Of a stretch of DNA of 64,000 nt, positions 1 to 55,465 are shown one piece after another. The notes beneath the pieces were generated by a model. That model was not told the origin of the DNA and did not search any database. It saw only the letters and a program-made list of their open reading frames with translations. The DNA comes from an uncultured Planctomycetia bacterium. GTDB taxonomy: Bacteria > Omnitrophota > Gorgyraeia > Tantalellales > Tantalellaceae. Numbering within the stretch: position 1 is the stretch's first letter; each line of letters begins with the position of its first letter. The stretch spans positions 300,726 through 364,725 of the forward strand of contig CAYQUS010000001.1 in NCBI GenBank assembly GCA_964421015.1, in the 5' to 3' direction. Made by a program: the position numbers and the translations under genes.

Positions 1-578
1 GGCCTGAACCAGAACATCGACCCCGCCGGAAAATCCAAGAGTGGAACCCCGAATGCGTCCATATTCATTCTCGAACACAGCTTTTCAACAGCCTGTCTGT
101 TCTCCTGCCATGGATCTTTCTCCAGTTCTGTAAAAAGATGCGGGACTATCTCGGGATAAACAACGCCGAGTTTCTCGTCACCGTCGAACATCCCAAGGAT
201 GTTCCTCACGATCTCTTCCGAACCGGAAAGATTGTACATAAGATAGTTTCCCCAGCCTTTCAGCCAGGGTACATGCGGCGTCTTCTTTGTGTGCACTTTA
301 AGCACAAGGTCGTATAACAAGAGGCTCTGGCTGAAATCGCATATGAACGGCGCGATGTCATAACCCCTGTTCTCCACTTCGCGCACTGTTACCCTCGCAC
401 GCGGGAGAACGCTCTTGAACACATCTTCCGTTCTTCTGCTCATACCTCTGGGGGTCGACACGTAAACATCAAGAGGCGAAGGAATATTTGATAACATATC
501 GGCAAGACCCTGGACCATATCCTGGTAAAAACAATGTGCCACTACCGCTATTTTGTATTTGCCGGCAATATCCCTCAT
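1..578 (-). CDS. Partial CDS (N-terminal part; C-terminus lies off the left edge). Rhamnan-synthesis-F (RgpF)-like glycosyltransferase family protein.
   Basis: ATG at 578 on the minus strand overlaps the upstream stop as ATGA. Manual translation MRDIAGKYKIAVVAHCFYQDMVQGLADML...VYVSTP has no stops to the window edge. The KIAVVAHCFYQD motif resembles the Rhamnan_synth_F family. Confidence 0.5.
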   Translation of the reverse strand, partial: MRDIAGKYKIAVVAHCFYQDMVQGLADMLSNIPSPLDVYVSTPRGMSRRTEDVFKSVLPRARVTVREVENRGYDIAPFICDFSQSLLLYDLVLKVHTKKTPHVPWLKGWGNYLMYNLSGSEEIVRNILGMFDGDEKLGVVYPEIVPHLFTELEKDPWQENRQAVEKLCSRMNMDAFGVPLLDFPAGSMFWFR

Positions 579-1321
579 CGAAGTATACCGCCTTCCTTTA
601 AAAGGCGCCTTGCCCTTGCGAGGTCCTCGGGAATGCCGATATCAATAAAAAAACCTTTGGAAACAAATACTTTAAGCCTTCCATTACGAAGCTTTTCCGG
701 AAAAACATCTTTTTCCAGAGAGAATGCCCCCTCCCTGGGAAAATCCTCGAGGTAATTCCTGGGAAAAACATAGCACCCGCTGTTTATAACCCCCGGACCG
801 CGTGAAATTTTCTCCTCAAATCCGGAGAGAAAGGCGCCCGACACATCGAGCCTCCCGTACCTTGAGGTGTCGGGCACTTCACAGCCGACTATAACTGGAA
901 TATGATCCTCTTTCCAGAAAGACTCTATCTCATCTATCTCTGCGTCAAAATAAGTATCTCCGTTAAAAACGAACACATGGTCCGAAGTACATCTTAACAT
1001 CGCCCCCTTCACCGCGCCGCCGGTGCCCAAAGGCTCCTTTTCTATCTCGTAAACCAACTCCAACTCACCGAAAGAATCCCCTATACGATGGATTATATTG
1101 TCGGCCATATGACCGACAGACAATACGACGCGCTTGAATCCTTTGCGCTCCAGGAGAGAAAGAAGGATCTCAAGGAACGGACGTCCATCCACAACCGCCA
1201 TGACTTTAGGCACATCGCTTATCATACTCCTAAGTCTGAGCCCCAGGCCCCCGGCAAGCACCACCGCTTCACGATGAGCGCCTTGTTTCACCGTCCCGGG
1301 AGATACTACATCACTTTCCAT
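575..1321 (-). CDS. Sugar-1-phosphate nucleotidyltransferase. Probably D-glycero-alpha-D-manno-heptose-1-phosphate guanylyltransferase (HddC-like).
   Basis: 248 aa. N-terminal VVLAGGLGLRLRS is the NTP_transferase G-loop (GGxGxRL). It lies next to a GHMP heptose-kinase-like gene, and a GT9 heptosyltransferase is in the locus. Confidence 0.65.
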   Translation of the reverse strand: MESDVVSPGTVKQGAHREAVVLAGGLGLRLRSMISDVPKVMAVVDGRPFLEILLSLLERKGFKRVVLSVGHMADNIIHRIGDSFGELELVYEIEKEPLGTGGAVKGAMLRCTSDHVFVFNGDTYFDAEIDEIESFWKEDHIPVIVGCEVPDTSRYGRLDVSGAFLSGFEEKISRGPGVINSGCYVFPRNYLEDFPREGAFSLEKDVFPEKLRNGRLKVFVSKGFFIDIGIPEDLARARRLLKEGGILR

Positions 1322-2337
1322 GCCTGCGCTCCGCTTTTCGTAAAATGAAAATTGCTCACTACTCCGCCGAACCCTTCTATGGTCTTTGTGACTTCCGCTC
1401 GCTTTTCGGGAGGAACAAAAAGAGCCATAAAACCGCCTCCGCCGGCTCCTGTAAGTTTTCCGGCCAGAGCCCCCGAGCGAAGAGCTCCTTTGTATATCTC
1501 CTCTATGCGAGGGTTAGACACCGACCTCGCTGAACGCTTCTTGTTCTCCCACCCGCTCTTCATGCACTCGACCATACCCGCAAAATCGCCTTTCAGAAGA
1601 CACTCTTTCATCACCAGCGCTTCCTGTTTCATCGCGTCCATGGCTTTTATCGTATCGGACAGACCTGACCTGACATTACTGCTCTGGTCGGAAATAATGC
1701 TAGCCGACTCCCGTGAAATGCCCGTATAAAAAAGAAGCATAGAAGCCTCAAGTTCAGAGATAACCCAATCCTTGACCCTCAGCGGATTAACGATAGCCCT
1801 GCCGTTATTATAAAATTCCATAAAATTAACCCCGCCGAACGCCGCGGAATACTGGTCCTGCCTCCCTCCCTGCAAACCGCAGTCGATCCGCTCTATCTTG
1901 AACGCGAGGCTCGCTATGCCATAATCGTCCAGAGGCAGGTTAAGGAATTCGGTAAATGCGCGGACCATGGCCACTACCAGTGTGGATGAAGACCCCAGCC
2001 CCGATCCGGGAGGCGCGTCGCAGTAAGTAGAAAGTTCGATGTGGAGCAGATTTCCTCCGTTCCAGCTACGGACCATCTCATTATACACAGCCCTGTGAAG
2101 GTCCATCCGTCCGGTCAGAGGAAACTCACCCCGCGCAGCCGGATCAAGGTCTTCTGTATCCTGGCCGATAATGGTAAACCGCACCTTAGATTCGTCCAGT
2201 GTCCTTATGCCCGCATAGACATACCTCGCGATAGCCGCATTGAGCACATAACCTCCGTAAACATCACAATACGGAGAAACATCCGTACCTCCGCCGGCAA
2301 GACCGAAACGAAGAGGAGCCCTTGCCCTGACTATCAT
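1306..2337 (-). CDS. GHMP-family sugar kinase. Probably D-glycero-alpha-D-manno-heptose-7-phosphate kinase (HddA-like).
   Basis: 343 aa. RAPLRFGLAGGGTD at the N-terminus matches HddA-type kinases. The GHMP ATP-binding loop PPGSGLGSSS and a C-terminal GAGGGGF are present. Confidence 0.7.
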   Translation of the reverse strand: MIVRARAPLRFGLAGGGTDVSPYCDVYGGYVLNAAIARYVYAGIRTLDESKVRFTIIGQDTEDLDPAARGEFPLTGRMDLHRAVYNEMVRSWNGGNLLHIELSTYCDAPPGSGLGSSSTLVVAMVRAFTEFLNLPLDDYGIASLAFKIERIDCGLQGGRQDQYSAAFGGVNFMEFYNNGRAIVNPLRVKDWVISELEASMLLFYTGISRESASIISDQSSNVRSGLSDTIKAMDAMKQEALVMKECLLKGDFAGMVECMKSGWENKKRSARSVSNPRIEEIYKGALRSGALAGKLTGAGGGGFMALFVPPEKRAEVTKTIEGFGGVVSNFHFTKSGAQAWKVM

Positions 2338-3143
2338 GCTGGCCCCCTTTCCCGGATGGGACCGTCGTCAACGAACGGTGGCTGCTCGGAATTCATCTTT
2401 ATTATAGCGGCTCGGTCCTTTACGAACTGGTTAAGATGAGCCCTTTCCTCAGGCGCGGGCTGAGACGAATTCTGAGCGTTGTACCTCCCACCTGCTGATA
2501 TTTCGCTCAAAGTCCTTTTCCTGACAACAAACTCTATGCCGCATTCCGCGACAGGCGTTACCGTCTGATCATACCGCGGCAGGTCATATCGATAAGTCGA
2601 CGAAAGTTTAATCAGCTTCACAAGTTCAGCTTCCTCACCGAGGCCGGCAATAAGGTCAACGACATTCCTGGACTTCACGCTCCATGACCTTTTCTTGAAT
2701 ATAGTAAAAGTCCATTTATGCTCAGTGTTAAAGGTGCTTGGGAACACACCCTGCTCATACATATCCTCATCCGGAACGGTCACGATGAGATACCCTCCGG
2801 GGACAACGACCCTCAGCCAGTTCCTCAGCGCTTCAAGCGGATCATCCAGATGTTCAAGACAATGGCTGCTGTGGACAAAATCGAAAGAAGCGTCGGGCAC
2901 TCCCGCGAGGAGCTTCGCGTCACCGTCTTCTTTATCCCAAGTCCTCACTTCCGTCATAAGACGGAAAAGCCCCCTGTACATCCCGAGTGGATCCGGACGT
3001 CCACCGATATCAAGCCCTTTCCCGGAAAAATAATGATTTATGAAATCCGGGTCATGCAGACGCCTTGAGATAGATTTACTGCATTCTCTCACGAAACACC
3101 TCCGCCTCTTTTTTTGAAAGACCTGAACACGAAATGCGGCCAT
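2334..3143 (-). CDS. Class I SAM-dependent methyltransferase.
   Basis: Motif I GLDIGGRPDP. FDFVHSSHCLEHLDDP and VVPGGYLIVTVP are typical of the Methyltransf_11/12 fold. The longest ORF starts at 3212 but overlaps the upstream gene by 124 nt. Start trimmed to the internal ATG at 3143. The exact start is uncertain. Confidence 0.55.
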   Translation of the reverse strand: MAAFRVQVFQKKRRRCFVRECSKSISRRLHDPDFINHYFSGKGLDIGGRPDPLGMYRGLFRLMTEVRTWDKEDGDAKLLAGVPDASFDFVHSSHCLEHLDDPLEALRNWLRVVVPGGYLIVTVPDEDMYEQGVFPSTFNTEHKWTFTIFKKRSWSVKSRNVVDLIAGLGEEAELVKLIKLSSTYRYDLPRYDQTVTPVAECGIEFVVRKRTLSEISAGGRYNAQNSSQPAPEERAHLNQFVKDRAAIIKMNSEQPPFVDDGPIRERGPA

Positions 3144-3868
3144 ATCTGCTCCGAGTTCAGGCCGTCGCGCCTTATGACCTTGTCCTCTACCACCTCGGTC
3201 GCCCCTATGCAACTGGAAACATTCGCGTCATCGAACACTATATACCCGCCTTCAGACATAAAGGGTTTTACGTTCTCATACGAGAAATCCACAGCCGAAC
3301 GTATATCGCAGTCAATATGAGCTAGCGCGACTTTGCCTGCCTCTGCCATCACGCCGGGCGCGGTTTCGCTGAAATCTCCCTTTACTATGATGAGATTACT
3401 CAGCCCAAGCCTCTCTACGTCCTTTCGTATCAACTTGGGATCCGCCCCCGAAAAATCTCCCCGATTATGCGCGTCTACCGCTTTGTCGGTCGCAGGCATG
3501 CCAGCGAAACTGTCCAGCGCAAAAACTGTCATCCCCGGATAAAGCTTACGGGCTATGTACGCCATAAAGATAGCATTACCGCATAGATACGCGCCGTATT
3601 CAACGATATGGCCGAACTCGCAGCGCCCCAGGAAGAACTTCATAATGAGAAACAGGTTCATGCGGTTAGCCTCGCTCATTACACTGCGGCTGCCGGCCGC
3701 GGCAAGAGCCTCCCGGTAAAGAGGATCGTCCAGCACCTTCTCCCGAAGGCCTCCGAACTGCAGCCCCCACCCTCGCTGGTACCCCTCGTAAACGTTCCTT
3801 CCTTTCCTTATCCCGGCTTGAAACCCTTTAAGTTCAGGTAAATATGTGTTCATGTTTTCTCCGTTCAC
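3089..3868 (-). CDS. TylF/MycF-family (macrocin-O-methyltransferase-like) SAM-dependent sugar O-methyltransferase.
   Basis: 259 aa. GHIVEYGAYLCGNAIFMA...FALDSFAGMP...IVKGDFSETAP...AHIDCDIRSAVDF...GGYIVFDD follows the TylF family layout. Confidence 0.65.
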   Translation of the reverse strand: MNGENMNTYLPELKGFQAGIRKGRNVYEGYQRGWGLQFGGLREKVLDDPLYREALAAAGSRSVMSEANRMNLFLIMKFFLGRCEFGHIVEYGAYLCGNAIFMAYIARKLYPGMTVFALDSFAGMPATDKAVDAHNRGDFSGADPKLIRKDVERLGLSNLIIVKGDFSETAPGVMAEAGKVALAHIDCDIRSAVDFSYENVKPFMSEGGYIVFDDANVSSCIGATEVVEDKVIRRDGLNSEQIWPHFVFRSFKKRGGGVS

Positions 3869-6800
3869 TACCTTTTGACCGCATGTATGTAGTGCTGGGC
3901 AGGGCCCAGGTGTCCGTATACTTCAGACCAGTAGAACTTCATGGAAACATCACGGAACCCTCCATTTTCCAGCATTTTAATAAGATCCCATCCGAAATCG
4001 GTGAAGACCAGAGAACCTTTACCGGTAAGAGGGTCGCCGTGGTAGATAGGCTCCGCGATGTGCTCTACCGCCCCTGAAACCAGACGGGCCCTCGAAAAAC
4101 TTTTATCCCTGTCCAGGTAGAGCGGCACTGTCATTATGAGACTCGCCTGCTTTTTCATAACCCTGCAAAGCTCCCTTACCGCGCTTAACGGATCAGGGAC
4201 ATGTTCAAGAACCTCATTGGTGACCACAATATCAAAAATCCCGTCCGTAAAACTCAGCCTGCAGATATCCTCGTGGCGTATACCTCCCACGACACTCCCG
4301 GGTGAGTATTTTCCTCCAAGATATTCGCTTCCTTCAAGTTGAAAATTAGGTAAAGCCTTTTCTGCCCACAGATAAAAAGAAGTCATCTTTTCCGTAAGAT
4401 ATGCTCTGCTTACCTTGTCACTCCTCCTAACCGCGATCTCCTGCAGGACCGACGCTATTGCCCTCTGCCTGTTATTCAGACCGCAGACCGGACAGACAAG
4501 CCTTTCCCTCCAGTTAGGTACCCATGTCCCGCCCGAAATAAAAGAACCGCACTCTTTATCTACCTTGAACCCCACATCCCGGCCGCATACTCTGCAATAC
4601 CCATTAAGCAGGAACCGATCGCTCCTTACATGCCGCATCATGACTTTCTTTTCCCTATTCCTTGAGATCATCTGTCCGTGAGAAACTGACCACTTATCAT
4701 ATTCTTCCTTAGTCTTTATTTCTTTCCAGTCCATCATGGCATCTTTACGCCTATCCGGCTCATACTTTGCGGTCTTTCGGAAATATGCAGCCATAGAGGG
4801 TATTCCTTTTTTCGCTTCGGGACTGTAAGACACCCCAGCGACATTGATAATATGCTTCATGGTATCCATTCCGGCTTCGAGGGAATAGTTCTTTTTTACG
4901 AACGCCAACCCACCCGTTGAAGAGGACTCCCAAAGCGCTTTATCCTCATAAAGTTCCGCTACGCGGGAAGCGAAAACATCCGGATCGTCGCCGACAAGAA
5001 CCCCGTCACCCGGAGAGAGCGACATCCCTTCGGCGCCTATGCTCGTGGAGACACAAGGTACCCCGTAGCTCAAGCTGGTCCCTATCTTTCCTTTTATACC
5101 AGCGCCGTAACGCAAAGGAACTACCGTGATACGGGCCCGGTCCATTTCCGAAGCCAGGTCCTCAACATAACCCGCGATATCTACCCCATGGCCCGCAAGA
5201 TCCCGCACATCATCAGGAATATGACTGCCGACTACGCGGAAAAACGTTCCAGGAAGTTTTTTCCTTACCAAAGGAAATATCTCTTTTACGAAATAAACAG
5301 CGGCATCCTTGTTCGGAAGATGCTGGAAACCGGCAACGAACAATATCCCGTCGCGACCGTCAAAGCTGCGCGTTCTTCCGGGAATATCTATTGCCCAGGG
5401 GAAAAGGCATATGCGGCTATCTTCCTGCTTCGAGTTCAGCTCTTCCTCGAGCATCGTCTTCTCAACGGTACTATGGACTATAACTGCATCCGATAAACGC
5501 ACGATAGCAAGCTCTTTTTCTTTCGTCTTTTTGGCTTTCCGCCGAAGGCTGTCAGACGATACAAGCTCAGCCTCTCTGCCTTCCCTAAGGTGATGAAGAT
5601 CTGAAGTATGCAAAATGTATTTAGCATCCGGACAGTGCCTTTTTATAGTCCGAATATTACGCTCGGCAGCCGTCATCCTGAAAGTTATTACAATATCATA
5701 CGTCTTACCGTATTTTGCCAGATGTTCTTCGAGCGAGGTGACGAACGGCGAATACAGGCACTCTATCCCCATCCGCTGCATATCACGGGTATACGGGGCC
5801 AGAAAAAGGAAATTATCTTCAGGCGCGAATGTAACCTTATACCCCATGCCGAGCAATATGCGCATGATATTAAGGGCCGTTATCGATCCGGCATCCTGGT
5901 CGGGTCTCGGCGTGCAGTGATCGATAACAAGCACCCGGCCACAAGAATACCTGTCTTTTTCAATAAAAGACCCGATCCCCGGAAGAGCGTGTTCGCGTAT
6001 ACGCTCTTTCCATTTTTCGTAAAGCCTGGCGGTATTTTCTTTCTGATAAGATTTAACCCCGCCGGACGTGTCTTTCCCGCATGTAACGCCTTCAAAATGA
6101 ACGACCCGCGAAAGAGGCTGGTAGATGACCCTTCGCCCCGCCTCCCTGACCCTGAAAGCAAGATCCGAATCCTCCCCATAGGCCGGAGAAAAACTTTCGT
6201 CAAAACCGCCAAGGCTGTCAAAAAGTTCCTTCTCTATCATGATCGACGCGCCGGAACAGTAATCCACATCCCTCATGTAGTTATACTCGGGACTTTCCGG
6301 GTCCTGCATCCTGCCGTAATTGCACCCCGAACCGTCCTGCCAAATGATCCCACCGGCCTCCTGCAGACGTCCGTCAGGATAGACCAGCTTTGATCCGACG
6401 AGTCCCGCGGAAGGGACACAGTTAAACGTCTCGACAAGCTCGTCAAGCCATCCGGGCCGGACTATCGTATCATTGTTGAGCATAACAAGAAGACGCCCCT
6501 TCGCGGCGCGAGCACCGGCGTTGCAGGATCTGACAAAACCCTCATTGCGGTCATTGCGGATCACCCTTATCCCTCCTATAGAGTTCAGCATTTCACGGGT
6601 AATATCCGAAGACGCATCGTCGACAACTATGACCTCAAAACTATAACCGGTCATGTGCGACATTAGGGACCTCAGGCACTGGTATGTATACTCGGCTTTA
6701 CCGAAAACCGGGATAATTACAGAAACTAAGGGTTTTTCCGGAAGAATAAGATCGAAAGGCTCTCCCGGTATGCCGGGAGAGCTGAATTTTTCAGGCAGGA

Positions 6801-7896
6801 ATGATCCGTAAAAAAAATAGGCCCCTGCCTGGCCATACTGTCCGGCCTCAGCGAAAAGACCGGGGAAAAGACCGTGAAGCTTCCTCTTTATCGCATGTCT
6901 GATCGGAGGAGAGAACGGAATAGCTTTATAAACAGCCTTCCCCAATAGCCGCAAGGATCCACCTGTTATCCGCGGAACAGAACGACACGTCTCCCCACAG
7001 TTACATAAAAACCGAGCCAGACGCCATGACCTGGAATTTAAAAGACTATTAAATTCCTCTCTAACTCCAAAAATCTCTTCTTTTGCCATTTCTAATTGAC
7101 CGGTTGTCTCGGATAAAAGATCAGATATCCTTTTGTTTTCCGATTTAAGCGCTTCCGACGCGGAACGCTCGTCGGACAATACTTTTTCCATAATACCGAA
7201 TGACGCTGCGTTACCCAGAACCTTGTAAGAATCTCTTATTTTCCCGGCGGTCGCGGCATCTAAAGAGAAAAGGTCCGGCAGATCCCTGGCAGCGTTTCTA
7301 CCCACGGCCAGAACACCCAAACCGCTTGAGTGATAAAATTCAAAACTCGGATATTCCGTTTTAAGCTTTGACCAGTATTCCCTGACACCAAAACCTGCCT
7401 TGTCCTCCGCTGTATCATGAAATAGCACTATACCTCGGGCGCTAAGTTTAGGCTTCCAGGTCTCAAAGTCATGACTGACAGCCTCAATGGTGTGCAGTCC
7501 GTCAATATGAAGAAGATCTATGGATCCGTCCTGGAATTCCGTTGCGGCGGCATCGAACGTCGTCCTCATAAGCCTGGAAAAGCTGCCGTAAGGAACATCA
7601 TGGCGGCGCATCAGGTCCTCAAATACCTCCTCCCCGTAATGACCGGAATGCTCATCCCCCTTCCATGTATCGACCGCGTAACATTTTGCCTCAAGGCCGT
7701 TCCTCTTTACTGCTTCGCAAAATGCCAGGTACGAGTCTCCCGCATAAGTACCCAGCTCAACAAAACACCGGGGATTGAATATCTTTATAAGGGAAAAAGC
7801 GAACGGGATATGCCCCTGCCATGACATTATCCTGCCGGGATCAACCTTCAAGTATTTCGTAAGATCCGAAAATGATATATCGAGAAACCTGTTCAT
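3868..7896 (-). CDS. 1342-aa multidomain glycan synthase. Order: N-terminal class I SAM methyltransferase, coiled coil, GT2 glycosyltransferase, GT4 (GT-B) glycosyltransferase, Cys4 zinc ribbon, C-terminal class I SAM methyltransferase.
   Basis: Single 4029-nt ORF. N-terminus: FVELGTYAGDSYLAF...LLHIDGLHTIEAV...VLFHDT (CmcI/TylF-like methyltransferase). Middle: VSVIIPVFGKAEYTYQCLRSL...EVIVVDDASSD...DSDLAFRVREAGRRV (GT2). Then VLVIDHCTPRPDQDAGS plus EGMSLSPGDGVLVGDD...GIKGKIGTSLSYGVPCVST (GT4). Then CRVCGRD...CPVCGLNN. C-terminus: FDIVVTNEVLEHVPDP...ASLIMTVP (Methyltransf_11-like). Confidence 0.75.
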   Translation of the reverse strand: MNRFLDISFSDLTKYLKVDPGRIMSWQGHIPFAFSLIKIFNPRCFVELGTYAGDSYLAFCEAVKRNGLEAKCYAVDTWKGDEHSGHYGEEVFEDLMRRHDVPYGSFSRLMRTTFDAAATEFQDGSIDLLHIDGLHTIEAVSHDFETWKPKLSARGIVLFHDTAEDKAGFGVREYWSKLKTEYPSFEFYHSSGLGVLAVGRNAARDLPDLFSLDAATAGKIRDSYKVLGNAASFGIMEKVLSDERSASEALKSENKRISDLLSETTGQLEMAKEEIFGVREEFNSLLNSRSWRLARFLCNCGETCRSVPRITGGSLRLLGKAVYKAIPFSPPIRHAIKRKLHGLFPGLFAEAGQYGQAGAYFFYGSFLPEKFSSPGIPGEPFDLILPEKPLVSVIIPVFGKAEYTYQCLRSLMSHMTGYSFEVIVVDDASSDITREMLNSIGGIRVIRNDRNEGFVRSCNAGARAAKGRLLVMLNNDTIVRPGWLDELVETFNCVPSAGLVGSKLVYPDGRLQEAGGIIWQDGSGCNYGRMQDPESPEYNYMRDVDYCSGASIMIEKELFDSLGGFDESFSPAYGEDSDLAFRVREAGRRVIYQPLSRVVHFEGVTCGKDTSGGVKSYQKENTARLYEKWKERIREHALPGIGSFIEKDRYSCGRVLVIDHCTPRPDQDAGSITALNIMRILLGMGYKVTFAPEDNFLFLAPYTRDMQRMGIECLYSPFVTSLEEHLAKYGKTYDIVITFRMTAAERNIRTIKRHCPDAKYILHTSDLHHLREGREAELVSSDSLRRKAKKTKEKELAIVRLSDAVIVHSTVEKTMLEEELNSKQEDSRICLFPWAIDIPGRTRSFDGRDGILFVAGFQHLPNKDAAVYFVKEIFPLVRKKLPGTFFRVVGSHIPDDVRDLAGHGVDIAGYVEDLASEMDRARITVVPLRYGAGIKGKIGTSLSYGVPCVSTSIGAEGMSLSPGDGVLVGDDPDVFASRVAELYEDKALWESSSTGGLAFVKKNYSLEAGMDTMKHIINVAGVSYSPEAKKGIPSMAAYFRKTAKYEPDRRKDAMMDWKEIKTKEEYDKWSVSHGQMISRNREKKVMMRHVRSDRFLLNGYCRVCGRDVGFKVDKECGSFISGGTWVPNWRERLVCPVCGLNNRQRAIASVLQEIAVRRSDKVSRAYLTEKMTSFYLWAEKALPNFQLEGSEYLGGKYSPGSVVGGIRHEDICRLSFTDGIFDIVVTNEVLEHVPDPLSAVRELCRVMKKQASLIMTVPLYLDRDKSFSRARLVSGAVEHIAEPIYHGDPLTGKGSLVFTDFGWDLIKMLENGGFRDVSMKFYWSEVYGHLGPAQHYIHAVKR

Positions 7897-7899
7897 CCC

Positions 7900-8514
7900 C
7901 TATTTGATCCCTCTCGTCAAAACAGCATTCTGCACTTTCAGCTTTACCGTATCCATAAAGTTACCTACTATTCCCCTGTCTGGCTTTCTCGCTACAAGCA
8001 CTGAATCATGCCACCAATCGCTCCCGTCAGAATAACCTTTATCATCCCAGAAAGTCACGGCCTCTATGACCTCGAGCCCCGCGAAATCCGCCATAGCCCT
8101 CATTCCATCCGGGTAGAACCTCCAGCAATCTACCGGGTAACGATGTTCCGGACCGCTTGAAGGCGCTATGATACAAACAAACCCCCCTGGCCTCAAAACC
8201 CTGGCGATTTCGGCCATGGTTATCCAAAAATAACGTATATGCTCGAAAGCCTGTCCCGAAACTACCACATCAACCGAGCTCGACGCTATGCTCCGCCAGG
8301 AATAAGGGTCAGAAAGCACTACATCCACATTCTTCCCGGAAGCCATATCGACCCCTGTATAGTTCCACTTCTCCCGTGCCAAAATATCACGATAGCTGCC
8401 GTTAACATCCTGACTGCCAAGATCAAATATGCTAAGACGTCGTCCTGCCATAGGCGCCAGGTAACGATCTCTGAACAATATCATTTTCTCGATTGAACTT
8501 CTATGCATGATCAC
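7900..8514 (-). CDS. Class I SAM-dependent methyltransferase.
   Basis: 204 aa. IFDLGSQDVNGSY...VDVVVSGQAFEHIRYF...LRPGGFVCIIAPS. The stop overlaps the upstream start as ATGA. Confidence 0.6.
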   Translation of the reverse strand: MIMHRSSIEKMILFRDRYLAPMAGRRLSIFDLGSQDVNGSYRDILAREKWNYTGVDMASGKNVDVVLSDPYSWRSIASSSVDVVVSGQAFEHIRYFWITMAEIARVLRPGGFVCIIAPSSGPEHRYPVDCWRFYPDGMRAMADFAGLEVIEAVTFWDDKGYSDGSDWWHDSVLVARKPDRGIVGNFMDTVKLKVQNAVLTRGIK

Positions 8515-9497
8515 CCCTTACCCCGGACCTGACATCCGGATATATCCCTCCGGACGAAAGCGTCCATCCCCGGCACATCATAAGTGAAATACGAGGGAAG
8601 TCCGTTCGCCATACAAAGCTTGCACACCGCGCTCGACTTTCTCTTCCGCTGGATCTCATCGAGAGCATCATCAAGATAATTCCCTATGACGAACTTACTT
8701 TCATCATAAACAGCGCAGCACAAGAGCGCATCTCCTCTGCAATTTAAAGTTATCTGTTCATCAAGGAGCCTGCACCGCGATATGGCTTTTCCTCTCATCT
8801 CGGCAACCGCTTTTTTCGGAGGCATGATAAGGTCTCCCACCAGACGCTCATCCTCTTCGGTAATTTCAGACAACGGCAATATACCGCAGATGGCCATAAC
8901 CTTTTCCAACGGCAGGAATAGCGCGTCCACAGTCTGTAAAAGCACCTCATTCTCGCGACAATATTCCGCTATTACAGCCTCATCGGCAACATTAGAACGA
9001 TAGCGGTGAAACGCCACCGATATCCTGGTCGAAGGACATATGCCAGTTTTTTCCTTCAAAAGAAAATCCAGATTATCCCTCAAAAGCCCCAGATCTCCGC
9101 CCCTGTGAGTCCTTTCGTATGTTTCTTTCCTGAACCCTGACAACGAGACGCGTAAAATATCGGGACCCGCTGCGATAAGTTTTTTCAGAACATTCTTAGG
9201 AACGTTCAGATTAGTGCTTATGGAACATTTTATCCCGCAGGATCTCACTACCCTTACCATATCATCTATCTCGGGATGAAGAAGCGGTTCCGACCAGTTA
9301 AAAAGCCCTACCCCGGTAATTTTACATTCCTTTGCGGCTTTGGCAAGTATCCGATGAAGAGTATCCGGAGACATCATCCCTTTAGCGTTATCGCCACGCT
9401 GGCTGTTCCCTGACGGACATGAGGGGCACCGTAGATTACATCCTGAAACGACATCGACATAAAAGTGCATTTTGGGTTTTTCAGCAACCATTACCAC
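8511..9497 (-). CDS. Radical SAM domain protein with a Cys-rich C-terminal SPASM/twitch-like region.
   Basis: 328 aa. FYVDVVSGCNLRCPSCP is the canonical CxxxCxxC [4Fe-4S] motif. The C-terminus has CRLLDEQITLNCRGDALLCC and CKLCMANG cysteine clusters. Confidence 0.7.
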   Translation of the reverse strand: MVMVAEKPKMHFYVDVVSGCNLRCPSCPSGNSQRGDNAKGMMSPDTLHRILAKAAKECKITGVGLFNWSEPLLHPEIDDMVRVVRSCGIKCSISTNLNVPKNVLKKLIAAGPDILRVSLSGFRKETYERTHRGGDLGLLRDNLDFLLKEKTGICPSTRISVAFHRYRSNVADEAVIAEYCRENEVLLQTVDALFLPLEKVMAICGILPLSEITEEDERLVGDLIMPPKKAVAEMRGKAISRCRLLDEQITLNCRGDALLCCAVYDESKFVIGNYLDDALDEIQRKRKSSAVCKLCMANGLPSYFTYDVPGMDAFVRRDISGCQVRGKG

Positions 9498-9503
9498 CCC
9501 GCG

Positions 9504-10277
9504 TCAGGCCCGCGTTATCCAGGCATCGGGCCAATATGTCAGCTCTTCGACAACAAACGCCTCCCCGTACATAGCACCGGGGCGCTCTATTTTAAATTCA
9601 GGATGTGTACGGACAAATTCACGCGCCGCTTCAGCCGGATTATCCGATAGCCACTCTTTCCTGCCGTTCGGCGTATCCGCCAGGCGTTCCATTATCCCAT
9701 CTGCGGCCACAATGTATGATCCGGAGCCTACAAGTGTAGCGTAGATCTCCAGCTCTTTCGACACATGATTCCTGGAATGGTCGCTGTCCAGGAAAACAAA
9801 GACCTTTTCGCCGGCCGAGATGTTTTCCTTCACTTTCCTTACGGTATCATCTGACACAGAAGAACCCTCAATAAGTGTGATAAGATCAGAGAATGGGCTC
9901 TTCCCTATGCTGCGGCGCACTTCCTGAGGTATAGTGATATCAATAGAAATAACTTTCCCCTTCCCCATAAGACGACAAATCGAAGCAAAAAAAACGGCGC
10001 TTCCTCCCCGACTCACCCCGGTCTCAATAATAACATCAGGTTTTATAGTGAACACAGATTCCTGGAGCCTCATAAGATCCTCGGGAAACTGCCATATCGG
10101 AAAACCACACCAGGAAAACGACTGCCAATGCAAACTGTTCCACTCCTGTTTTATCCACAGGTCTGACAATGATCTAAAACCCTCAGGAGAATATAACCCG
10201 AACCTTTTCTCTTCCCCGCTCGAGCTCACTGTTGTTACCGTTTTGTCCGCATCGTCTATAATAATTCTCATAAGCAC
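9504..10277 (-). CDS. CmcI-family (cephalosporin-hydroxylase-like) SAM-dependent O-methyltransferase, of the kind that O-methylates rhamnosyl or sugar residues.
   Basis: 257 aa. WQFPEDL...KPDVIIETGVSRGGSAVFFA...KVFVFLDSDHS is the CmcI family pattern. Confidence 0.6.
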   Translation of the reverse strand: MLMRIIIDDADKTVTTVSSSGEEKRFGLYSPEGFRSLSDLWIKQEWNSLHWQSFSWCGFPIWQFPEDLMRLQESVFTIKPDVIIETGVSRGGSAVFFASICRLMGKGKVISIDITIPQEVRRSIGKSPFSDLITLIEGSSVSDDTVRKVKENISAGEKVFVFLDSDHSRNHVSKELEIYATLVGSGSYIVAADGIMERLADTPNGRKEWLSDNPAEAAREFVRTHPEFKIERPGAMYGEAFVVEELTYWPDAWITRA

Positions 10278-10285
10278 CCGCCCCC

Positions 10286-11047
10286 CTAACGCGTCGCCAC
10301 TAAAGTGAATAGTTCTATCTTTTTGTTCATCGGCACAAAAAAGTGTTTAGAAACTGAGAGATCGAACTTGTTAAACCCTCTGAGCTCCAACAAGTTCTCA
10401 AACACCTTAGGCCCTATCCACCACCATGTCCATGCCCCAAAACTTTTGGCCCTTTCTCTTTTGGGCATGAATTCCATCAGTGGCCGCTTCAGATCCATAT
10501 CTGGAGGCAGTCGGTCAGTGATTATTATCGCTTCCTTAGCCCTGTCGGCAGCGAATTGGATAGCGCCCACGGGATTACGTGTGTGCAGAAGCACGGAACC
10601 GAACGTAACAACATCGAAATCGCCCAGCTCTTCCGGAATATCGTATATCGATCCGAAACTGAGTTCGAGTTTTGACCCTAAACGGTTACGGCAATAATAC
10701 CACCCATTATTAAGCCTGCCCATGGTCGAACGCATAGTCCTTTCGACTTCGCGATAATCCTGATCCGAGGTCGGCATAATATCCCAGCTATGAGACGGAG
10801 AAAGATCATAGGGAGTAACTACTGCCCCTTCCTTTTCCATCCAGAAAGCATGACTACCCGTGGCCGTTCCGATCTCAAGAACAGTCTTTCCCTTAAAATC
10901 AAAACTGCCATGGTATTCGCGTTCAGTATATCTGAAATCCCATTGCCCTGGGGTAGGCTCCTCTCCGGGAAGATCTATAACATGAAAAAACGCACATTCT
11001 TCTCTTTTTGGATCCTGATCCACCTTTTGATAACCGACCTTATCCAT
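10286..11047 (-). CDS. Class I SAM-dependent methyltransferase.
   Basis: 253 aa. Motif I KTVLEIGTATGSHAF, then FDVVTFGSVLLHTRNP. Confidence 0.6.
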   Translation of the reverse strand: MDKVGYQKVDQDPKREECAFFHVIDLPGEEPTPGQWDFRYTEREYHGSFDFKGKTVLEIGTATGSHAFWMEKEGAVVTPYDLSPSHSWDIMPTSDQDYREVERTMRSTMGRLNNGWYYCRNRLGSKLELSFGSIYDIPEELGDFDVVTFGSVLLHTRNPVGAIQFAADRAKEAIIITDRLPPDMDLKRPLMEFMPKRERAKSFGAWTWWWIGPKVFENLLELRGFNKFDLSVSKHFFVPMNKKIELFTLVATR

Positions 11048-11084
11048 ACTCCCCCTTAAAATAATATGTGCGCGACAGCTACGA

Positions 11085-12110
11085 TCATTTCCAATCGATC
11101 CCCCAGGATCCCGGATCGCTATTGCGCAATTCTTCTATTTCCCTGAGGCCTTTAAACTCCGGTTCCGCGAAAAATCTTTCCATATCACTTTTCCACCTAT
11201 CAGGATCATATAAGAAAGGCTTATCCGAAAAGAACGTCATGGGGAAATCCCCGACCATCGCCTTAAGATCCCGATTGTATTTTACATGATCTTTCCTTAT
11301 CCGGTTTGAAAAGTCTTCCGAAATATAAAAAGCTCCTCTAAACCGGCTATCCGACAATGCAAGCCTTTTCAAGGCTGCGTAGTACTCCCTTTTATGGGAA
11401 GTAACCCTGTTAAGCGCTAACTTAAAGACCAAAAGATTCCCCGAAATTGTCGGATTACTGTCCGTAGGATTTTCGTCAGGAGCAAGATCCAACCCGAGCC
11501 TCTCGATAAAATCTCCAACAACTCCGCTTTTCTTTTCCCTCGCGTTCTCATAGCTGATAAACTCCGTCTCGTCCGCGAACTTCTCCCAGAATTTTATGAA
11601 CGCCTCAAGACCCACCCGTCGGAAAATAGAGCAATATTCCGCGAAGGAACAGAAAGTCCCGGTGGCCTGAATTTTTTGGGCCCATGCGCTCCGTGTTGAA
11701 TCTAGAAATTCGCGCAGATAACAGATAACTTTAATATTGTACGGCTCCCTTGAGAAAATTTTTGCTAGACGAGGAGCTTTACCAAAAAATCTTCTAAGTC
11801 TGTCAGCTTTTGTAAGGTTCTGAAATCCTTCCGAGCTGACTATAATGCGCCGGAAAGCCGCAACCTCTTCATCGAACCTCGCTTTCAGATCCGATATCTC
11901 CTCCTCACTGATGGAACTTTTTTGGTGACAGGCTGCAGATATCTCTCCTTGCTGAGGAGAAAATAACCTTGTCCCTGTCCTTGGGTAACATACACCCTGG
12001 CGCGCCAGAACTTCGCGGTTTCCAGTAAGAAAAGCCTGTATAGCGCTTGAGCCTGTTTTAGCTCTGCCAATATGAAGATATAACAACTTTTTAGACATGT
12101 CCAAACCCAT
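11085..12110 (-). CDS. Putative sulfotransferase-fold protein (P-loop-like PAPS-binding motif). Function uncertain.
   Basis: 341 aa. N-terminal LYLHIGRAKTGSSAIQ resembles the sulfotransferase 5-prime-PSB motif. It sits directly downstream of two clear sulfotransferase genes. Confidence 0.4.
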   Translation of the reverse strand: MGLDMSKKLLYLHIGRAKTGSSAIQAFLTGNREVLARQGVCYPRTGTRLFSPQQGEISAACHQKSSISEEEISDLKARFDEEVAAFRRIIVSSEGFQNLTKADRLRRFFGKAPRLAKIFSREPYNIKVICYLREFLDSTRSAWAQKIQATGTFCSFAEYCSIFRRVGLEAFIKFWEKFADETEFISYENAREKKSGVVGDFIERLGLDLAPDENPTDSNPTISGNLLVFKLALNRVTSHKREYYAALKRLALSDSRFRGAFYISEDFSNRIRKDHVKYNRDLKAMVGDFPMTFFSDKPFLYDPDRWKSDMERFFAEPEFKGLREIEELRNSDPGSWGIDWK

Positions 12111-12158
12111 GTTGAAACAAACAAAGAACAGCGCCCGAACTAACTTGTGAATTACCGA

Positions 12159-13118: not shown

Positions 13119-13122
13119 ATTC

Positions 13123-15991: not shown

Positions 15992-16040
15992 AGAAAACTT
16001 GAATATCGCCGGCGTAATGCCAGACGGCCGGATGGCCCTT

Positions 16041-17072: not shown

Positions 17073-17089
17073 TTTCGACCGACAAACCT

Positions 17090-51032: not shown

Positions 51033-51119
51033 AAATCCTCCATCACCCGGGCACACCCCGCTTCCCGCGGGCTATGCCCGGGATTTCAACGCTCCCTTTA
51101 TGTCACTCTTTCAGGACAG

Positions 51120-52322: not shown

Positions 52323-52335
52323 TTTGATACCTCCG

Positions 52336-53878: not shown

Positions 53879-53885
53879 TTTGGTG

Positions 53886-54887: not shown

Positions 54888-54888
54888 T

Positions 54889-55461: not shown

Positions 55462-55465
55462 AAAA

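Follow-up and report, generated by a model that had tools for sequence, protein, structure and literature searches.

A conserved, methyltransferase-rich gene cassette proposed to direct synthesis of an O-methylated and sulfated heptose glycan

Results

Methyltransferase genes of the block

The window analyzed here, from a genome probably belonging to the Omnitrophota, is a 64-kb stretch of DNA containing 54 genes, and all features given coordinates below lie on its minus strand. From 575 to 18175 the genes are closely spaced on a single strand, either overlapping or separated by no more than 49 bp. Within this array, a Pfam scan placed seven class I SAM-dependent methyltransferase (MT) domains, all scoring above the curated cut-offs, in six of the seven tightly packed genes at 2334-11047. 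The first-pass annotation had described six consecutive MT genes; six genes do bear MT domains, but the run is interrupted by a radical SAM/SPASM gene. Its division of the six into a TylF type, a CmcI type and four generic class I types was borne out by Pfam matches above cut-off. The whole window holds 10 MT domains in 9 of the 54 genes (seven in the block and three outside it), in agreement with an earlier tally of at least ten. Five domains had been placed elsewhere, of which three are truly outside, but the two in the gene at 3868-7896 sit within the block. That these are SAM-binding folds was checked by profile search and is upheld by the Pfam scores, with further support from AlphaFold/Foldseek and hhalign.

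The small class I MT at 2334-3092 (252 aa; Methyltransf_11, 43.8 bits) has 245-aa orthologs at 59-65% identity, and a PDB sequence search places it closest to SAM-dependent MTs, among them a glucose O-methyltransferase (6uv6), with E values of 0.001 to 0.004. Its open reading frame reaches 3212, and the GTG at 3092 is the likely start because of a GTGA overlap with the stop of the TylF-like gene, an upstream GGAGG and a 1:1 alignment to a 245-aa ortholog. The TylF-family sugar O-methyltransferase at 3089-3868 (Pfam TylF, 49.5 bits) is 67-69% identical to its orthologs; its PDB relatives are the O-methyltransferases 5i10 and 4cdz, followed by NovP, CalS11 (a TDP-rhamnose 3'-O-methyltransferase) and MycF. 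A PDB sequence search with the 204-aa class I MT at 7900-8514 (Methyltransf_11, 38.5 bits) returned no significant relative; hhalign aligned it with profiles of canonical MTs, starting at motif I, with a probability of 79%, and the protein is 62-63% identical to orthologs encoded directly before homologs of the 1342-aa enzyme described below. The CmcI/rhamnosyl-O-methyltransferase-family protein at 9504-10277 (RMNT_CmcI, 209.9 bits) is 60-65% identical to its orthologs and has CmcI as its PDB relative, but it reaches only 92.9 bits against the NCBIfam rhamnosyl O-methyltransferase equivalog (cut-off 400). The last MT of the block, at 10286-11047 (253 aa; Methyltransf_23, 32.1 bits), has VLEIGTATGS as motif I and an hhalign probability of 86% in the same profile comparison; no ortholog was found in related loci, making it an accessory particular to this window. 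The closest solved relatives of the cassette MTs are sugar O-methyltransferases: MeT1, NovP, CalS11, MycF, AtmM and RebM.

The interrupting gene at 8511-9497 (Radical_SAM, 47.4 bits; SPASM, 22.6 bits) encodes a CxxxCxxC motif at aa 20-27 and matched no NCBIfam model above cut-off. It is particular to the cassette of this window, being missing between the equivalent neighbors in loci L081, L082 and L085. The radical SAM protein consumes SAM yet is not a class I MT.

With MTs assumed to make up 2% of genes as background, the probability of finding at least nine in 54 genes is ~1e-6, which together with gene order kept in other phyla excludes chance. The MT paralogs of the block are mutually unrelated, so the run is not the product of recent duplication. 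Transmembrane segments were found neither in any block MT nor in the 1342-aa enzyme, implying that all of them work in the SAM-containing cytoplasm.

A 1342-aa methyltransferase-glycosyltransferase fusion

The gene at 3868-7896 encodes a soluble protein of 1342 aa, here called BIG, with an N-terminal MT, a helical spacer, GT2 and GT4 glycosyltransferase modules, and a C-terminal Zn ribbon with a second MT. It has more than 2500 homologs, the full-length ones at 50-54% identity. Pfam detects Methyltransf_24 near the N terminus (aa 46-162; 91.8 bits) and Methyltransf_11 near the C terminus (aa 1206-1254; 42.6 bits). In the N-terminal O-methyltransferase domain (aa 1-200; 7297-7896), our candidate chain terminator, the ELGTxxGxS glycine loop and the DTWxGD, HIDG and HD motifs are invariant among 30 orthologs. 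Its AlphaFold model (pLDDT 84.3) matches class I MTs with a Foldseek probability of 1.0; the best PDB fold match is Mycobacterium hassiacum MeT1 (E 4e-9, TM 0.68 on target), followed by Mg-dependent catechol-O-methyltransferase-like enzymes.

Two long predicted helices of 73 and 37 residues (H214-286 and H289-325 in the AlphaFold secondary structure) make up aa 214-325 (6922-7257), which may act as a coiled-coil-like spacer or ruler; heptad periodicity is weak. Across 30 orthologs, the stretch linking MT to GT2 ranges in length from 111 to 215 residues, and the domains on either side of it are conserved. The GT2 (GT-A) module (aa 386-640; 5977-6741; Glycos_transf_2, 95.8 bits) has chondroitin synthase and GalNAc-transferases as PDB relatives, and the GT4-type (GT-B) module (aa ~650-1020; 4837-5949) matches Glyco_trans_1_4 at aa 850-985 (70.5 bits) and has a TIGR03087-like match at aa 785-1018. 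The C-terminal region (aa 1030-1342; 3871-4809), recognized by Methyltransf_11 and AlphaFold, joins a Zn ribbon of four invariant Cys to an atypical class I MT in which the GxGxG loop is not present, a YLxExxT motif is conserved at the beta1 loop and a Glu after beta2 is invariant. Its model (pLDDT 88.6) matches AtPMT2, AtmM, RebM and CgnL with a Foldseek probability of 1.0. In the fusion proteins P0040 and P0065, a BIG homolog is continuous with TylF and CmcI domains or with a sulfotransferase.

Putative heptose genes adjoining the block

Directly adjoining the MT genes are an HddA-like GHMP kinase of the D-glycero-D-manno-heptose 7-phosphate kinase type (1306-2337; GHMP_kinases_N/C) and an HddC-like sugar-1-phosphate guanylyltransferase (575-1321; Pfam NTP_transferase). 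The HddC activity is the last step to GDP-D-glycero-alpha-D-manno-heptose. With the NCBIfam HddA equivalog the kinase aligns end to end (1-338 of 338) and scores 376 bits, short of the cut-off of 600; fucokinase comes second at 120 bits. The kinase is 66-68% identical to orthologs in L081, L082, L085 and L001. Among NCBIfam models, the guanylyltransferase scores highest with the HddC equivalog (168.8 bits, under the cut-off of 300); the protein is 41-54% identical to the product of the cassette-ending gene in L081, L082 and L085. GmhA and GmhB were not found in the 64-kb window, and a full GmhA/HddA/HddC/GmhB set is attached to the cassette in relatives. Among the sugars proposed in the first-pass annotation, heptose is accordingly favored, and judged by gene content it is most likely the cassette sugar. 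The donor specificity of the BIG GT2 and GT4 modules leaves room for a backbone built from another sugar, in which case heptose might form a side chain or cap.

Sulfation, export and methyltransferases outside the block

On the other side of the block, a divergent sulfotransferase-like protein (11085-12110) lacks a Pfam match of its own and has 3526 homologs with a conserved HIGxxKTGT(S)S loop. Among 33 of these homologs, three match Sulfotransfer_1 (best 1.5e-6) and two match Sulfotransfer_3; the top PDB profile match is the sulfotransferase 3rnl (E 0.013). Two Sulfotransfer_3 proteins follow (12159-13118 and 13123-14244; 112 and 104.8 bits), with 58% and 46% identity to a pair in L082. PAPS supply is represented by a CysN/CysC fusion and CysD (19793-22651; APS_kinase and GTP_EFTU, PAPS_reduct), and APS kinase also adjoins the cassettes of relatives in L085 and L086. 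This sulfation arm of sulfotransferases and CysDNC is absent from the first-pass annotation, though equally conserved.

The gene at 14153-15991 encodes a fused TMD-NBD ABC exporter of the HepA/MsbA type (ABC_membrane, ABC_tran), for which the NCBIfam HepA family is best at 430 bits (cut-off 725) and MsbA next at 381 bits. We propose it as the glycan exporter by position: it holds the place of Wzm/Wzt in relatives, and comparable fused exporters stand beside BIG homologs in L031, L045 and L072. Wzm/Wzt, a WecA-type initiating transferase and a WaaL ligase were not found in the 64 kb. A GT2 (16041-17072) and a GT4 (17090-18175) on the exporter's strand, 49 bp from its gene, are possible adaptor or primer glycosyltransferases.

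The three MT domains outside the block are assigned to other pathways. A stand-alone canonical class I MT (25972-26781; Methyltransf_11, 72.1 bits) lies outside the cassette in a separate sub-cluster, flanked by a GT2 and a UDP-GlcNAc 2-epimerase. The gene at 34201-35868 encodes an NAD-epimerase/dehydratase (Epimerase, 75.8 bits) fused to a class I MT in its C-terminal half (aa 364-512; Methyltransf_25, 49.6 bits); the open reading frame overlaps its upstream gene by 97 nt, and the start at 35775 (Met32) given in the first-pass annotation is plausible. The protein encoded at 55466-56104 scores 181.7 bits against TIGR03587, the pseudaminic-acid-biosynthesis-associated methylase (cut-off 112), and its gene is embedded among PseB-like, PseC-like, PseI and cytidylyltransferase genes, assigning it to a different pathway.

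The cassette in other bacteria

Three other genomes, a Gammaproteobacteria MAG, a Syntrophales MAG and GCA_041643195.1, share the order CmcI, MT, BIG, TylF, MT, HddA, (GmhA), HddC, (GmhB), with identities of 41-69%. All three have Wzm/Wzt and sulfotransferases upstream of the cassette, and GCA_041643195.1 also has APS kinase. Variant cassettes, among which the number of MTs differs, occur in Pseudomonas taiwanensis (GCA_013393345.1) and a Pyrinomonadaceae MAG, and WecA-family genes are present in relatives. The Pyrinomonadaceae Wzt carries a cap-binding Wzt_C domain, but in four of the five relatives with Wzm/Wzt the protein is short (232-251 aa) and lacks it, which weakens the idea of a cap as export signal.

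Discussion

Domain identities, predicted folds, operon packing, cross-phylum synteny and the link to heptose genes are direct observations at this locus. On the strength of sequence and structural models, we consider that the cassette probably specifies a heptose-containing surface polysaccharide that is made in the cytoplasm, carries multiple O-methyl groups as well as sulfate, and depends on an ABC exporter. Common to distant bacterial phyla, the cassette would have spread by lateral transfer, with the block as its conserved core. HddA and HddC would provide GDP-D-glycero-alpha-D-manno-heptose, with GmhA and GmhB supplied from elsewhere in the genome. BIG, the proposed polymerase-terminator, would extend a lipid-linked primer through its GT2 and GT4 modules, and its N-terminal Mg-type O-methyltransferase, kept off those modules by the helical spacer of ~110 residues, would methylate the non-reducing end so that growth stops. 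The C-terminal Zn-ribbon MT and four stand-alone O-methyltransferases (the TylF type, the CmcI type and two small class I enzymes), plus one extra here, would put more methyl ethers on heptose hydroxyls. Two or three adjacent sulfotransferases, using PAPS from CysDNC, would add sulfate, and the HepA/MsbA-type exporter would carry the finished glycan over the inner membrane. What we infer in this scheme is the identity of the sugar, the roles of BIG as polymerase and terminator, which positions are methylated and the final acceptor.

The heavily O-methylated glycan suggested by the first-pass annotation thus agrees with sugar O-methyltransferase lineages whose genes lie among those for glycosyltransferases, nucleotide sugars and an exporter, but it does not extend to all ten domains: these do not all serve one glycan, since one is pseudaminic-acid-associated and two lie in other sub-clusters. 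Nor does the cassette belong to the mycobacterial MGLP/GPL systems offered as examples; the closest fold to the BIG N-terminal MT, MeT1, comes from the mycobacterial methylmannose polysaccharide pathway. As modeled, BIG parallels Klebsiella pneumoniae O7 ORF6, an O-antigen polymerase-terminator with an MT, long helices and a GT-GT layout (PMC11231755), and WsaE, which has the same type of layout and works in S-layer protein glycosylation (PMC2943079). The cassette is an uncharacterized version of a known pathway type, not a new kind of system.

A possible but more doubtful arrangement is that all cassette MTs act on one non-reducing terminal residue, giving a per-O-methylated cap that sets chain length and leaves the polymer body unmethylated. 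Such caps have precedents in the 2,3,4-tri-O-methylfucose of the Rhizobium etli CE3 O-antigen and of Mycobacterium tuberculosis PGL. A chain-termination cap had also been raised in the first-pass annotation, and the MT, long helix and GT2-GT4 layout speaks for that part, with the N-terminal MT in a terminator-like position behind a length-variable helical spacer, as do the Wzt_C domain of the Pyrinomonadaceae variant, the WsaE and WbdD-type precedents (PMC11231755, PMC2943079) and the five free hydroxyls of a terminal heptose, near the six conserved MT domains. Restriction of all methylation to the cap fits less well with the short Wzt of four relatives, with the second BIG MT, fused right after the GT4 module and not on the spacer side, with the variable MT number, and with MeT1, the best structural match, belonging to a polymethylated polysaccharide pathway.

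Methylation before transfer, in which the MTs would modify the nucleotide sugar, as CalS11 does TDP-rhamnose, and glycosyltransferases would polymerize pre-methylated GDP-heptose, is unlikely. The solved relatives found for the TylF-like protein include CalS11, and the MT genes directly adjoin those for HddA and HddC, but most characterized relatives (MeT1, WsaE, WbdD and TylF, MycF and NovP) methylate after glycosyl transfer, and two of the MT domains share one polypeptide with the glycosyltransferase modules.

We regard as similarly improbable that the product is not an LPS- or capsule-type polysaccharide but a small methylated glycolipid, a glycosylated metabolite (PGL/GPL- or macrolide-like) or a glycosylated S-layer protein, pilin or flagellin. 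Members of the TylF and CmcI families are familiar chiefly as tailoring enzymes of natural products and PGL, WaaL and WecA were not found in the window, many GT-C/PMT_2-like membrane glycosyltransferases were, and WsaE serves an S-layer protein. Against this, PKS, NRPS and lipid-synthesis genes occur nowhere in the window, and the dual-GT layout and the Wzm/Wzt and WecA-family genes of relatives are hallmarks of undecaprenyl-PP polymer assembly. The polysaccharide model would also accommodate transfer of the finished polymer to a protein.

That unrelated MT genes, decayed paralogs or non-methylating MT-fold proteins were grouped by accident is scarcely credible: the fold matches do include the cyclase SpnF, and the BIG C-terminal domain has no canonical glycine loop, but conserved synteny, with each MT kept at 59-69% identity in unchanged order across phyla, effectively refutes it, and the intact, tightly coupled open reading frames, the unrelated paralogs, the invariant cofactor-loop residues of the BIG N-terminal domain and the low chance probability under the 2% background all point the same way.

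Ten methyltransferase domains are encoded in nine genes of the window

All 54 gene-size ORFs of the window, 53 of which lie on the minus strand, were scanned against Pfam with the curated cut-offs (gathering scores) applied. The scan placed ten class I SAM-methyltransferase domains in nine genes, in agreement with the at least ten domains estimated in the first-pass annotation, and each of the ten scores above the gathering threshold of at least one Pfam methyltransferase family. Six of the seven ORFs within 2334-11047 carry methyltransferase domains above the curated cut-offs: 2334-3212 (Methyltransf_11), 3089-3868 (TylF), a large enzyme at 3868-7896 with two domains (an N-terminal Methyltransf_24 and a C-terminal Methyltransf_11), 7900-8514 (Methyltransf_11), 9504-10277 (RMNT_CmcI, 4e-62) and 10286-11047 (Methyltransf_23), all on the minus strand. 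The seventh ORF, 8511-9497 (minus strand), encodes a radical SAM/SPASM protein according to Pfam, and because it lies inside the block, the six methyltransferase genes, which had been described as consecutive, are not strictly so, their number being correct. Pfam places three further domains outside the block, in 25972-26781, in the C-terminal half of 34201-35868 and in 55466-56104; the earlier figure of five elsewhere also included the two domains of the large enzyme, which lie within it. With an assumed background of 2% methyltransferase genes, the chance of finding at least nine among 54 is P ~1e-6.

The start codon of 2334-3212 is almost certainly GTG 3092, which overlaps the stop codon of the TylF-type gene as GTGA, has GGAGG upstream, and gives an end-to-end alignment with 245-aa orthologues. 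The methyltransferase assignment of 2334-3092 comes from Pfam and weak PDB matches only, and its glycine-rich loop reads as the variant LDIGG. Variants of the glycine-rich SAM loop (E/DxGxGxG) are present in 7900-8514, 9504-10277, 10286-11047 and 34201-35868. PDB sequence searches returned no significant solved relatives of 7900-8514 and 10286-11047; from motif I onward these two proteins align with canonical methyltransferase profiles with hhalign probabilities of 79% and 86%, respectively. The first-pass annotation had allowed that profile searches might find most of the proteins not to be SAM-binding folds. Pfam, AlphaFold/Foldseek and hhalign do not bear this out, and the observation of dense methyltransferases therefore stands.

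The TylF-type protein scores 49.5 bits against a Pfam cut-off of 23 and is related to 5i10/4cdz, NovP, CalS11 and MycF; the segments DSF... and HIDCD, read by eye from the sequence, look like metal-binding Asp sites. The 9504-10277 protein scores 209.9 bits with RMNT_CmcI and covers positions 3-205 of the 206 in the Pfam model, and reaches 92.9 bits with the NCBIfam rhamnosyl 2-O-methyltransferase equivalog NF045824, for which the cut-off is 400. By these scores it is a member of the CmcI / Rv2959c family and no orthologue of the characterized rhamnosyl 2-O-methyltransferase, so a rhamnosyl substrate is not transferable to it.

Recent duplication was rejected as the cause of the methyltransferase density, the block's methyltransferases being mutually unrelated by BLASTP; the sole meaningful similarity among them extends over 41 residues and links 2334-3092 to the large enzyme's C-terminal domain. 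Nor was there support for a methylase role of the radical SAM protein, which lacks a cobalamin-binding domain and matches only SPASM-type maturase/dehydrogenase models of NCBIfam, all far below their cut-offs.

Domain architecture of the large enzyme

The 1342-aa enzyme encoded by 3868-7896 is a soluble protein with GT2 and GT4 modules, and no membrane segments were found in it. It begins with a methyltransferase domain (aa 1-200; Pfam and AlphaFold), which is followed by two long helices of 73 and 37 residues predicted by AlphaFold (aa 214-286 and 289-325), the GT2 module (aa 386-640) and the GT4 module (aa ~650-1020), both from Pfam, and a Zn ribbon with a second methyltransferase domain (aa 1030-1342; Pfam and AlphaFold). 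On the basis of its two GT modules we propose the enzyme as a candidate polymerase.

The AlphaFold model of the N-terminal 385 residues (pLDDT 84.3) consists of a methyltransferase domain and then helices, and matches Mg-dependent O-methyltransferases with a Foldseek probability of 1.0. The glycine loop ELGTxxGxS and the acidic/His motifs of this domain are invariant across 30 orthologues. Its best match among solved structures is MeT1, at 18% identity, a correspondence at the level of the fold. In the C-terminal model (pLDDT 88.6), a four-Cys ribbon precedes a methyltransferase fold that matches AtPMT2, the sugar O-methyltransferases AtmM and RebM, and CgnL, again with a Foldseek probability of 1.0. 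The C-terminal methyltransferase lacks the glycine-rich SAM loop and has a conserved YLxExxT in its place.

The spacer between the N-terminal methyltransferase and the GT2 module ranges from 111 to 215 residues among orthologues, with the flanking domains conserved, and its heptad periodicity is weak. A kinase of the WbdD/ORF6-O7 type was sought in the enzyme and rejected, as AlphaFold models the region between methyltransferase and GT2 as helices only and no kinase profile matches. With that space filled by helix, a kinase domain could not be accommodated, and a methyl-phosphate cap is therefore unlikely.

The cassette recurs in other phyla

The methyltransferase block and the two genes beyond its 3' end form a cassette that is found in other bacteria. 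The large enzyme has more than 2500 homologs, about thirty of which are full-length at 50-54% identity. A common core order is seen in loci of a Gammaproteobacteria MAG (L081), a Syntrophales MAG (L082/L083) and GCA_041643195.1 (L085): CmcI-type methyltransferase, 202-aa methyltransferase, large enzyme, TylF-type methyltransferase, 245-aa methyltransferase and GHMP kinase, then a SIS isomerase, a nucleotidyltransferase and a HAD phosphatase, of which the isomerase and the phosphatase are not present in all. Identities between the window proteins and the corresponding proteins of these loci are 41-69%. In all three genomes the upstream side of the core holds Wzm and a short Wzt together with an OafA-like O-acetyltransferase and one or two sulfotransferases, with another methyltransferase in L081 and L085 and an APS kinase in L085.

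A variant in a genome assigned to Pseudomonas taiwanensis (GCA_013393345.1, QJRF01000042.1; L086) encodes Wzm, Wzt, a sulfotransferase, a methyltransferase, a 1520-aa enzyme, TylF, a methyltransferase, HddA, GmhA and HddC; a gene for an APS kinase is close by. In another variant, from a Pyrinomonadaceae MAG (L087), Wzt bears a Wzt_C carbohydrate-binding domain. Longer relatives of the large enzyme include a 1748-aa protein fused to TylF and CmcI domains (P0040, L084 10001-15247) and a 1480-aa protein fused to a Sulfotransfer_3 domain (P0065). P0040 is alone on its contig, with no other glycan genes.

Specific to the window are the radical SAM gene, the methyltransferase gene 10286-11047 and ORF 11085-12110, none of which has orthologues in the related loci. 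The radical SAM gene sits between the 204-aa and CmcI-type methyltransferase genes, which are directly adjacent to each other in L081, L082 and L085; L082 has a different radical SAM gene, of 451 aa, upstream of the core.

Among GTDB species representatives, the best match to the large enzyme is 44% identical and comes from a Pyrinomonadaceae MAG. The cassette proteins are closest to those of the Gammaproteobacteria and Syntrophales MAGs, whereas the organism-named matches of CysN/C (79% and 66-71% identity) and PseI (65-70%), which lie 30 kb apart in the window, are mostly from Candidatus Omnitrophota/Omnitrophica and indicate a probable Omnitrophota source. This difference in apparent affinity is consistent with lateral acquisition of the cassette. 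No tRNA genes were found in the window, nor were terminator or promoter patterns detected at the operon's 3' end.

A probable GDP-heptose route accompanies the conserved core

The pathway of GmhA, HddA, GmhB and HddC is known from the S-layer glycan of Aneurinibacillus thermoaerophilus and from Campylobacter and Burkholderia capsules. The best, full-length NCBIfam matches of the two genes at the end of the operon are HddA and HddC (models NF049969 and NF049965). The HddA-like protein (1306-2337, minus strand) scores 376 bits over the whole model, below the equivalog cut-off of 600, with fucokinase next best at 120; the HddC-like protein (575-1321, minus strand) scores 168.8 bits, below its equivalog cut-off of 300. 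The window also differs from the known pathway in encoding neither GmhA nor GmhB. SIS/GmhA adjoins the cassette in L081, L085, L086 and L087 and a HAD phosphatase does so in L085, where the complete GmhA/HddA/HddC/GmhB set is attached to the cassette.

Of the nucleotide-sugar pathways, this probable GDP-D-glycero-alpha-D-manno-heptose route alone accompanies the core, the variable extras being ManC in L081 and RmlA/C/D in L082. We therefore infer heptose as the leading candidate for the polymerized or methylated sugar. Enzymes for 6-deoxyheptose were not encountered among the conserved core genes.

Putative sulfation and export genes adjoin the methyltransferase block

Directly upstream of the methyltransferase block are three genes of a sulfation arm: 11085-12110 (minus strand) and two Sulfotransfer_3 genes (12159-14244, minus strand; Pfam). 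The 341-aa product of 11085-12110 has no Pfam match. Its family is large (3526 homologs at E<=1e-3) and lacks annotation; a PAPS-loop-like HIGxxKTGT(S)S motif is conserved in it, and Sulfotransfer_1/3 matches occur in a minority of the members. For the protein itself, the best PDB profile match is a sulfotransferase (E 0.013), and it is probably a third, divergent sulfotransferase beside the two annotated ones. A CysN/C fusion and CysD for PAPS supply (19793-22651, minus strand; Pfam) are encoded a few genes beyond the exporter. Sulfotransferases accompany the cassette in L081, L082, L085 and L086, with an APS kinase in two of them, and sulfation is therefore as conserved as methylation.

The exporter is a fused TMD-NBD ABC protein (14153-15991, minus strand), which scores highest in NCBIfam with the HepA-family and MsbA models, without reaching the cut-off of either. 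It holds the position of Wzm/Wzt in the related loci. Three loci of Alphaproteobacteria (L031, L045 and L072) have exporters 28-31% identical to it next to homologs of the large enzyme, and the transporter class may have been swapped within one cassette type. Pfam detected neither an ABC2_membrane protein nor Wzm/Wzt in the 64-kb window; Wzm/Wzt is encoded in L081, L082, L085, L086 and L087. The window contains no initiating transferase of the WecA/PF00953 type and no WaaL ligase. A WecA-type gene is present in L081, L082 and L083, and that of the window's genome may lie elsewhere on the 524-kb contig.

Proposed assembly route and placement of the methyl groups

The cassette would best be classed, from its gene content, as an ABC-transporter-dependent polymerase-terminator system. 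In the proposed mechanism, a glycan would grow on a lipid carrier in the cytoplasm, polymerized from GDP-heptose by the GT2 and GT4 modules of the large enzyme, whose N-terminal methyltransferase would terminate the chain through methylation. Further O-methyl groups would be contributed by the C-terminal methyltransferase of the enzyme and by the stand-alone TylF-type, CmcI-type and small methyltransferases, sulfate would be added by the sulfotransferases, and the product would leave through the ABC transporter. We consider this general model of a lipid-linked heptose glycan that is polymerized, methylated, sulfated and ABC-exported to be somewhat favored.

The methyl groups could form a terminal cap only, as the terminator-like architecture of the large enzyme and the Wzt_C domain in L087 would suggest. 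Set against this are the Wzt_C cap-binding domain's absence from the short Wzt of four loci (L081, L082, L085 and L086), the large count of methyltransferases and the fusion of one of them beside the GT4 module, all of which speak for methylation along the chain. We give a cap-only arrangement less than even odds. If the product were only a methyl-capped O-antigen, the locus would represent ordinary serotype diversity. Methylation at the level of the nucleotide sugar is a minor possibility, entertained because CalS11 is among the solved relatives of the TylF-type protein.

The most far-reaching version of the along-chain reading is that the cassette makes an exported polysaccharide in which the heptoses of the entire chain have methyl or sulfate groups on the majority, or even all, of their free hydroxyls. 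Polymethylated polysaccharides would then exist as a class beyond the actinobacteria, spread laterally among four phyla or more, the ultra-small uncultivated Omnitrophota being one, with the large enzyme coupling polymerization, per-residue methylation and termination. We consider this unlikely.

No description of the cassette or its product was found in the literature searched. Methyl ethers and sulfate esters alter the contacts of surface glycans with water, lectins, phages and hydrolases, and the clusters that install many methyl or sulfate groups have, to our knowledge, been described in detail solely for mycobacteria and some O-antigens. The present cassette is self-contained, uniting precursor supply, a putative fused polymerase/terminator, six or seven O-methyltransferase domains and sulfotransferases, and recurs in Pseudomonas, Syntrophales and Acidobacteriota as well as in the window's probable Omnitrophota genome. 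Confirmation of the product would bring a new modified-heptose polymer to the bacterial surface glycans, provide glyco-engineers with a compact set of regiospecific sugar O-methyltransferases, and supply a second architecture (methyltransferase, spacer, GT2-GT4, methyltransferase) for the molecular-ruler model of chain-length control. The P. taiwanensis variant is a possible model, since the species belongs to a readily cultured genus.

Comparison with known polymerase-terminator and sugar methylation systems

Single-polypeptide polymerase-terminators of ABC-transporter-dependent O-antigens include O7 ORF6, O12 WbbB and E. coli O9a WbdD/WbdA, and the K. pneumoniae O7 ORF6 protein combines a methyltransferase-kinase terminator, a coiled coil and two GT2 modules (PMC11231755). 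The large enzyme resembles these proteins in being soluble and in having a putative N-terminal chain-modifying domain, long helices and two GT modules, although significant likeness in sequence was seen for generic domains only; the relatives of the window cassette also use Wzm/Wzt. Unlike them, it has no kinase domain, pairs GT2 with GT4 rather than with a second GT2, and carries a second, C-terminal methyltransferase behind a Zn ribbon. The cassette further adds four or five stand-alone methyltransferases and sulfotransferases, and the window has the fused HepA/MsbA-type exporter instead of Wzm/Wzt. Unusual in this system are the seven methyltransferase domains, the GDP-heptose link, the conserved sulfation arm and the non-Wzm/Wzt exporter found here.

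WsaE, a trifunctional enzyme of the S-layer glycan of Geobacillus stearothermophilus NRS 2004/3a, has an N-terminal O-methyltransferase that makes a 2-O-methyl cap and two rhamnosyltransferase domains that build the repeat, and its gene adjoins wzm/wzt (PMC2943079). Compared by its published description, it shares the N-terminal O-methyltransferase and two GT domains with the large enzyme, but its product is a rhamnan with one methyl group, whereas the window cassette has seven methyltransferase domains, heptose genes and sulfotransferases. The common polysaccharide antigen (CPA) loci of P. aeruginosa and P. syringae encode WbdD-like methyltransferases, accessory methyltransferase genes (PA5457, PA5459) and an acetyltransferase for an ABC-transporter-dependent homopolymer, and some P. 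syringae isolates have GT-methyltransferase fusions (PMC3560663, PMC7820976). The CPA, in contrast to the product proposed here, is a D-rhamnan with one or two methyltransferases, and its loci have neither heptose genes nor sulfotransferases.

Sugar O-methyltransferases of the families found in the block also have roles in mycobacterial PGL/GPL and in macrolide tailoring, where Rv2959c belongs to the CmcI family and TylF, MycF, NovP and CalS11 represent the others. The window resembles those systems in combining the RMNT_CmcI and TylF families in one locus, the methylation there being of several deoxyhexose hydroxyls. It differs in that 9504-10277 scores below the rhamnosyl O-methyltransferase equivalog cut-off, in having no lipid or polyketide aglycone genes, and in its polymerase/exporter context.

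The mycobacterial 3-O-methylmannose polysaccharide (MMP) is described as intracellular, as is MGLP. Membership of the cassette in the MGLP or PGL systems was considered and rejected. MeT1 is the 1-O-methyltransferase of the MMP pathway, whose set comprises MeT1, pMeT3, ManT and MmpH (PMC9883506). In both cases sugar O-methyltransferases are clustered with a GT-B glycosyltransferase and the donor, a predicted one in the cassette, is a GDP-sugar, and the cassette may work in a partly similar way. The window differs in having another sugar pathway, added sulfation, no MmpH hydrolase and an exporter; membership in the MMP system was rejected on the last two points and on the match to MeT1, which is one of fold only.

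Other glycan pathways in the window

The ten methyltransferase domains do not all serve one glycan. The 55466-56104 protein is a pseudaminic-acid-associated methylase, above the NCBIfam cut-off, and is encoded within a block of Pse-type genes. This block of the pseudaminic-acid type of nonulosonic acid (46934-58295, minus strand) encodes PseB-like and PseC-like proteins, PseI, a cytidylyltransferase, a formyltransferase, a GNAT protein and the methylase; the homologs of its PseI are named pseudaminic acid synthase. Small GT2s and membrane glycosyltransferases of GT-C-like type abound in the sub-clusters that hold the genes 25972-26781 and 34201-35868. The latter gene (minus strand) joins an NAD-dependent epimerase/dehydratase and a class I methyltransferase in one polypeptide. 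Its full ORF overlaps the upstream neighbor by 97 nt, so the later start at 35775 (Met32) chosen in the first-pass annotation is probably right.

Two proteins of 625 and 400 aa, encoded by 45005-46882 and 51120-52322 (minus strand) within the Wzx/nonulosonic-acid part of the island, lack TM-like segments and remain without a Pfam match when the threshold is relaxed to E<=1. Seven other proteins are polytopic, with 6-10 TM-like segments each, and are encoded at 18319-19809, 30718-32601, 32603-34258, 38114-39415, 59967-61655 and 61659-63848 on the minus strand and at 23849-25276 on the plus strand. The 729-aa product of 61659-63848 has no Pfam match; most of the seven match PMT_2/GT87 (GT-C), and several adjoin small GT2 genes. 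They constitute an unusual density of candidate periplasmic glycosyltransferases. The GT87-like gene at 23849-25276 is the sole plus-strand gene of the window, and the GC skew of the window is continuously negative.
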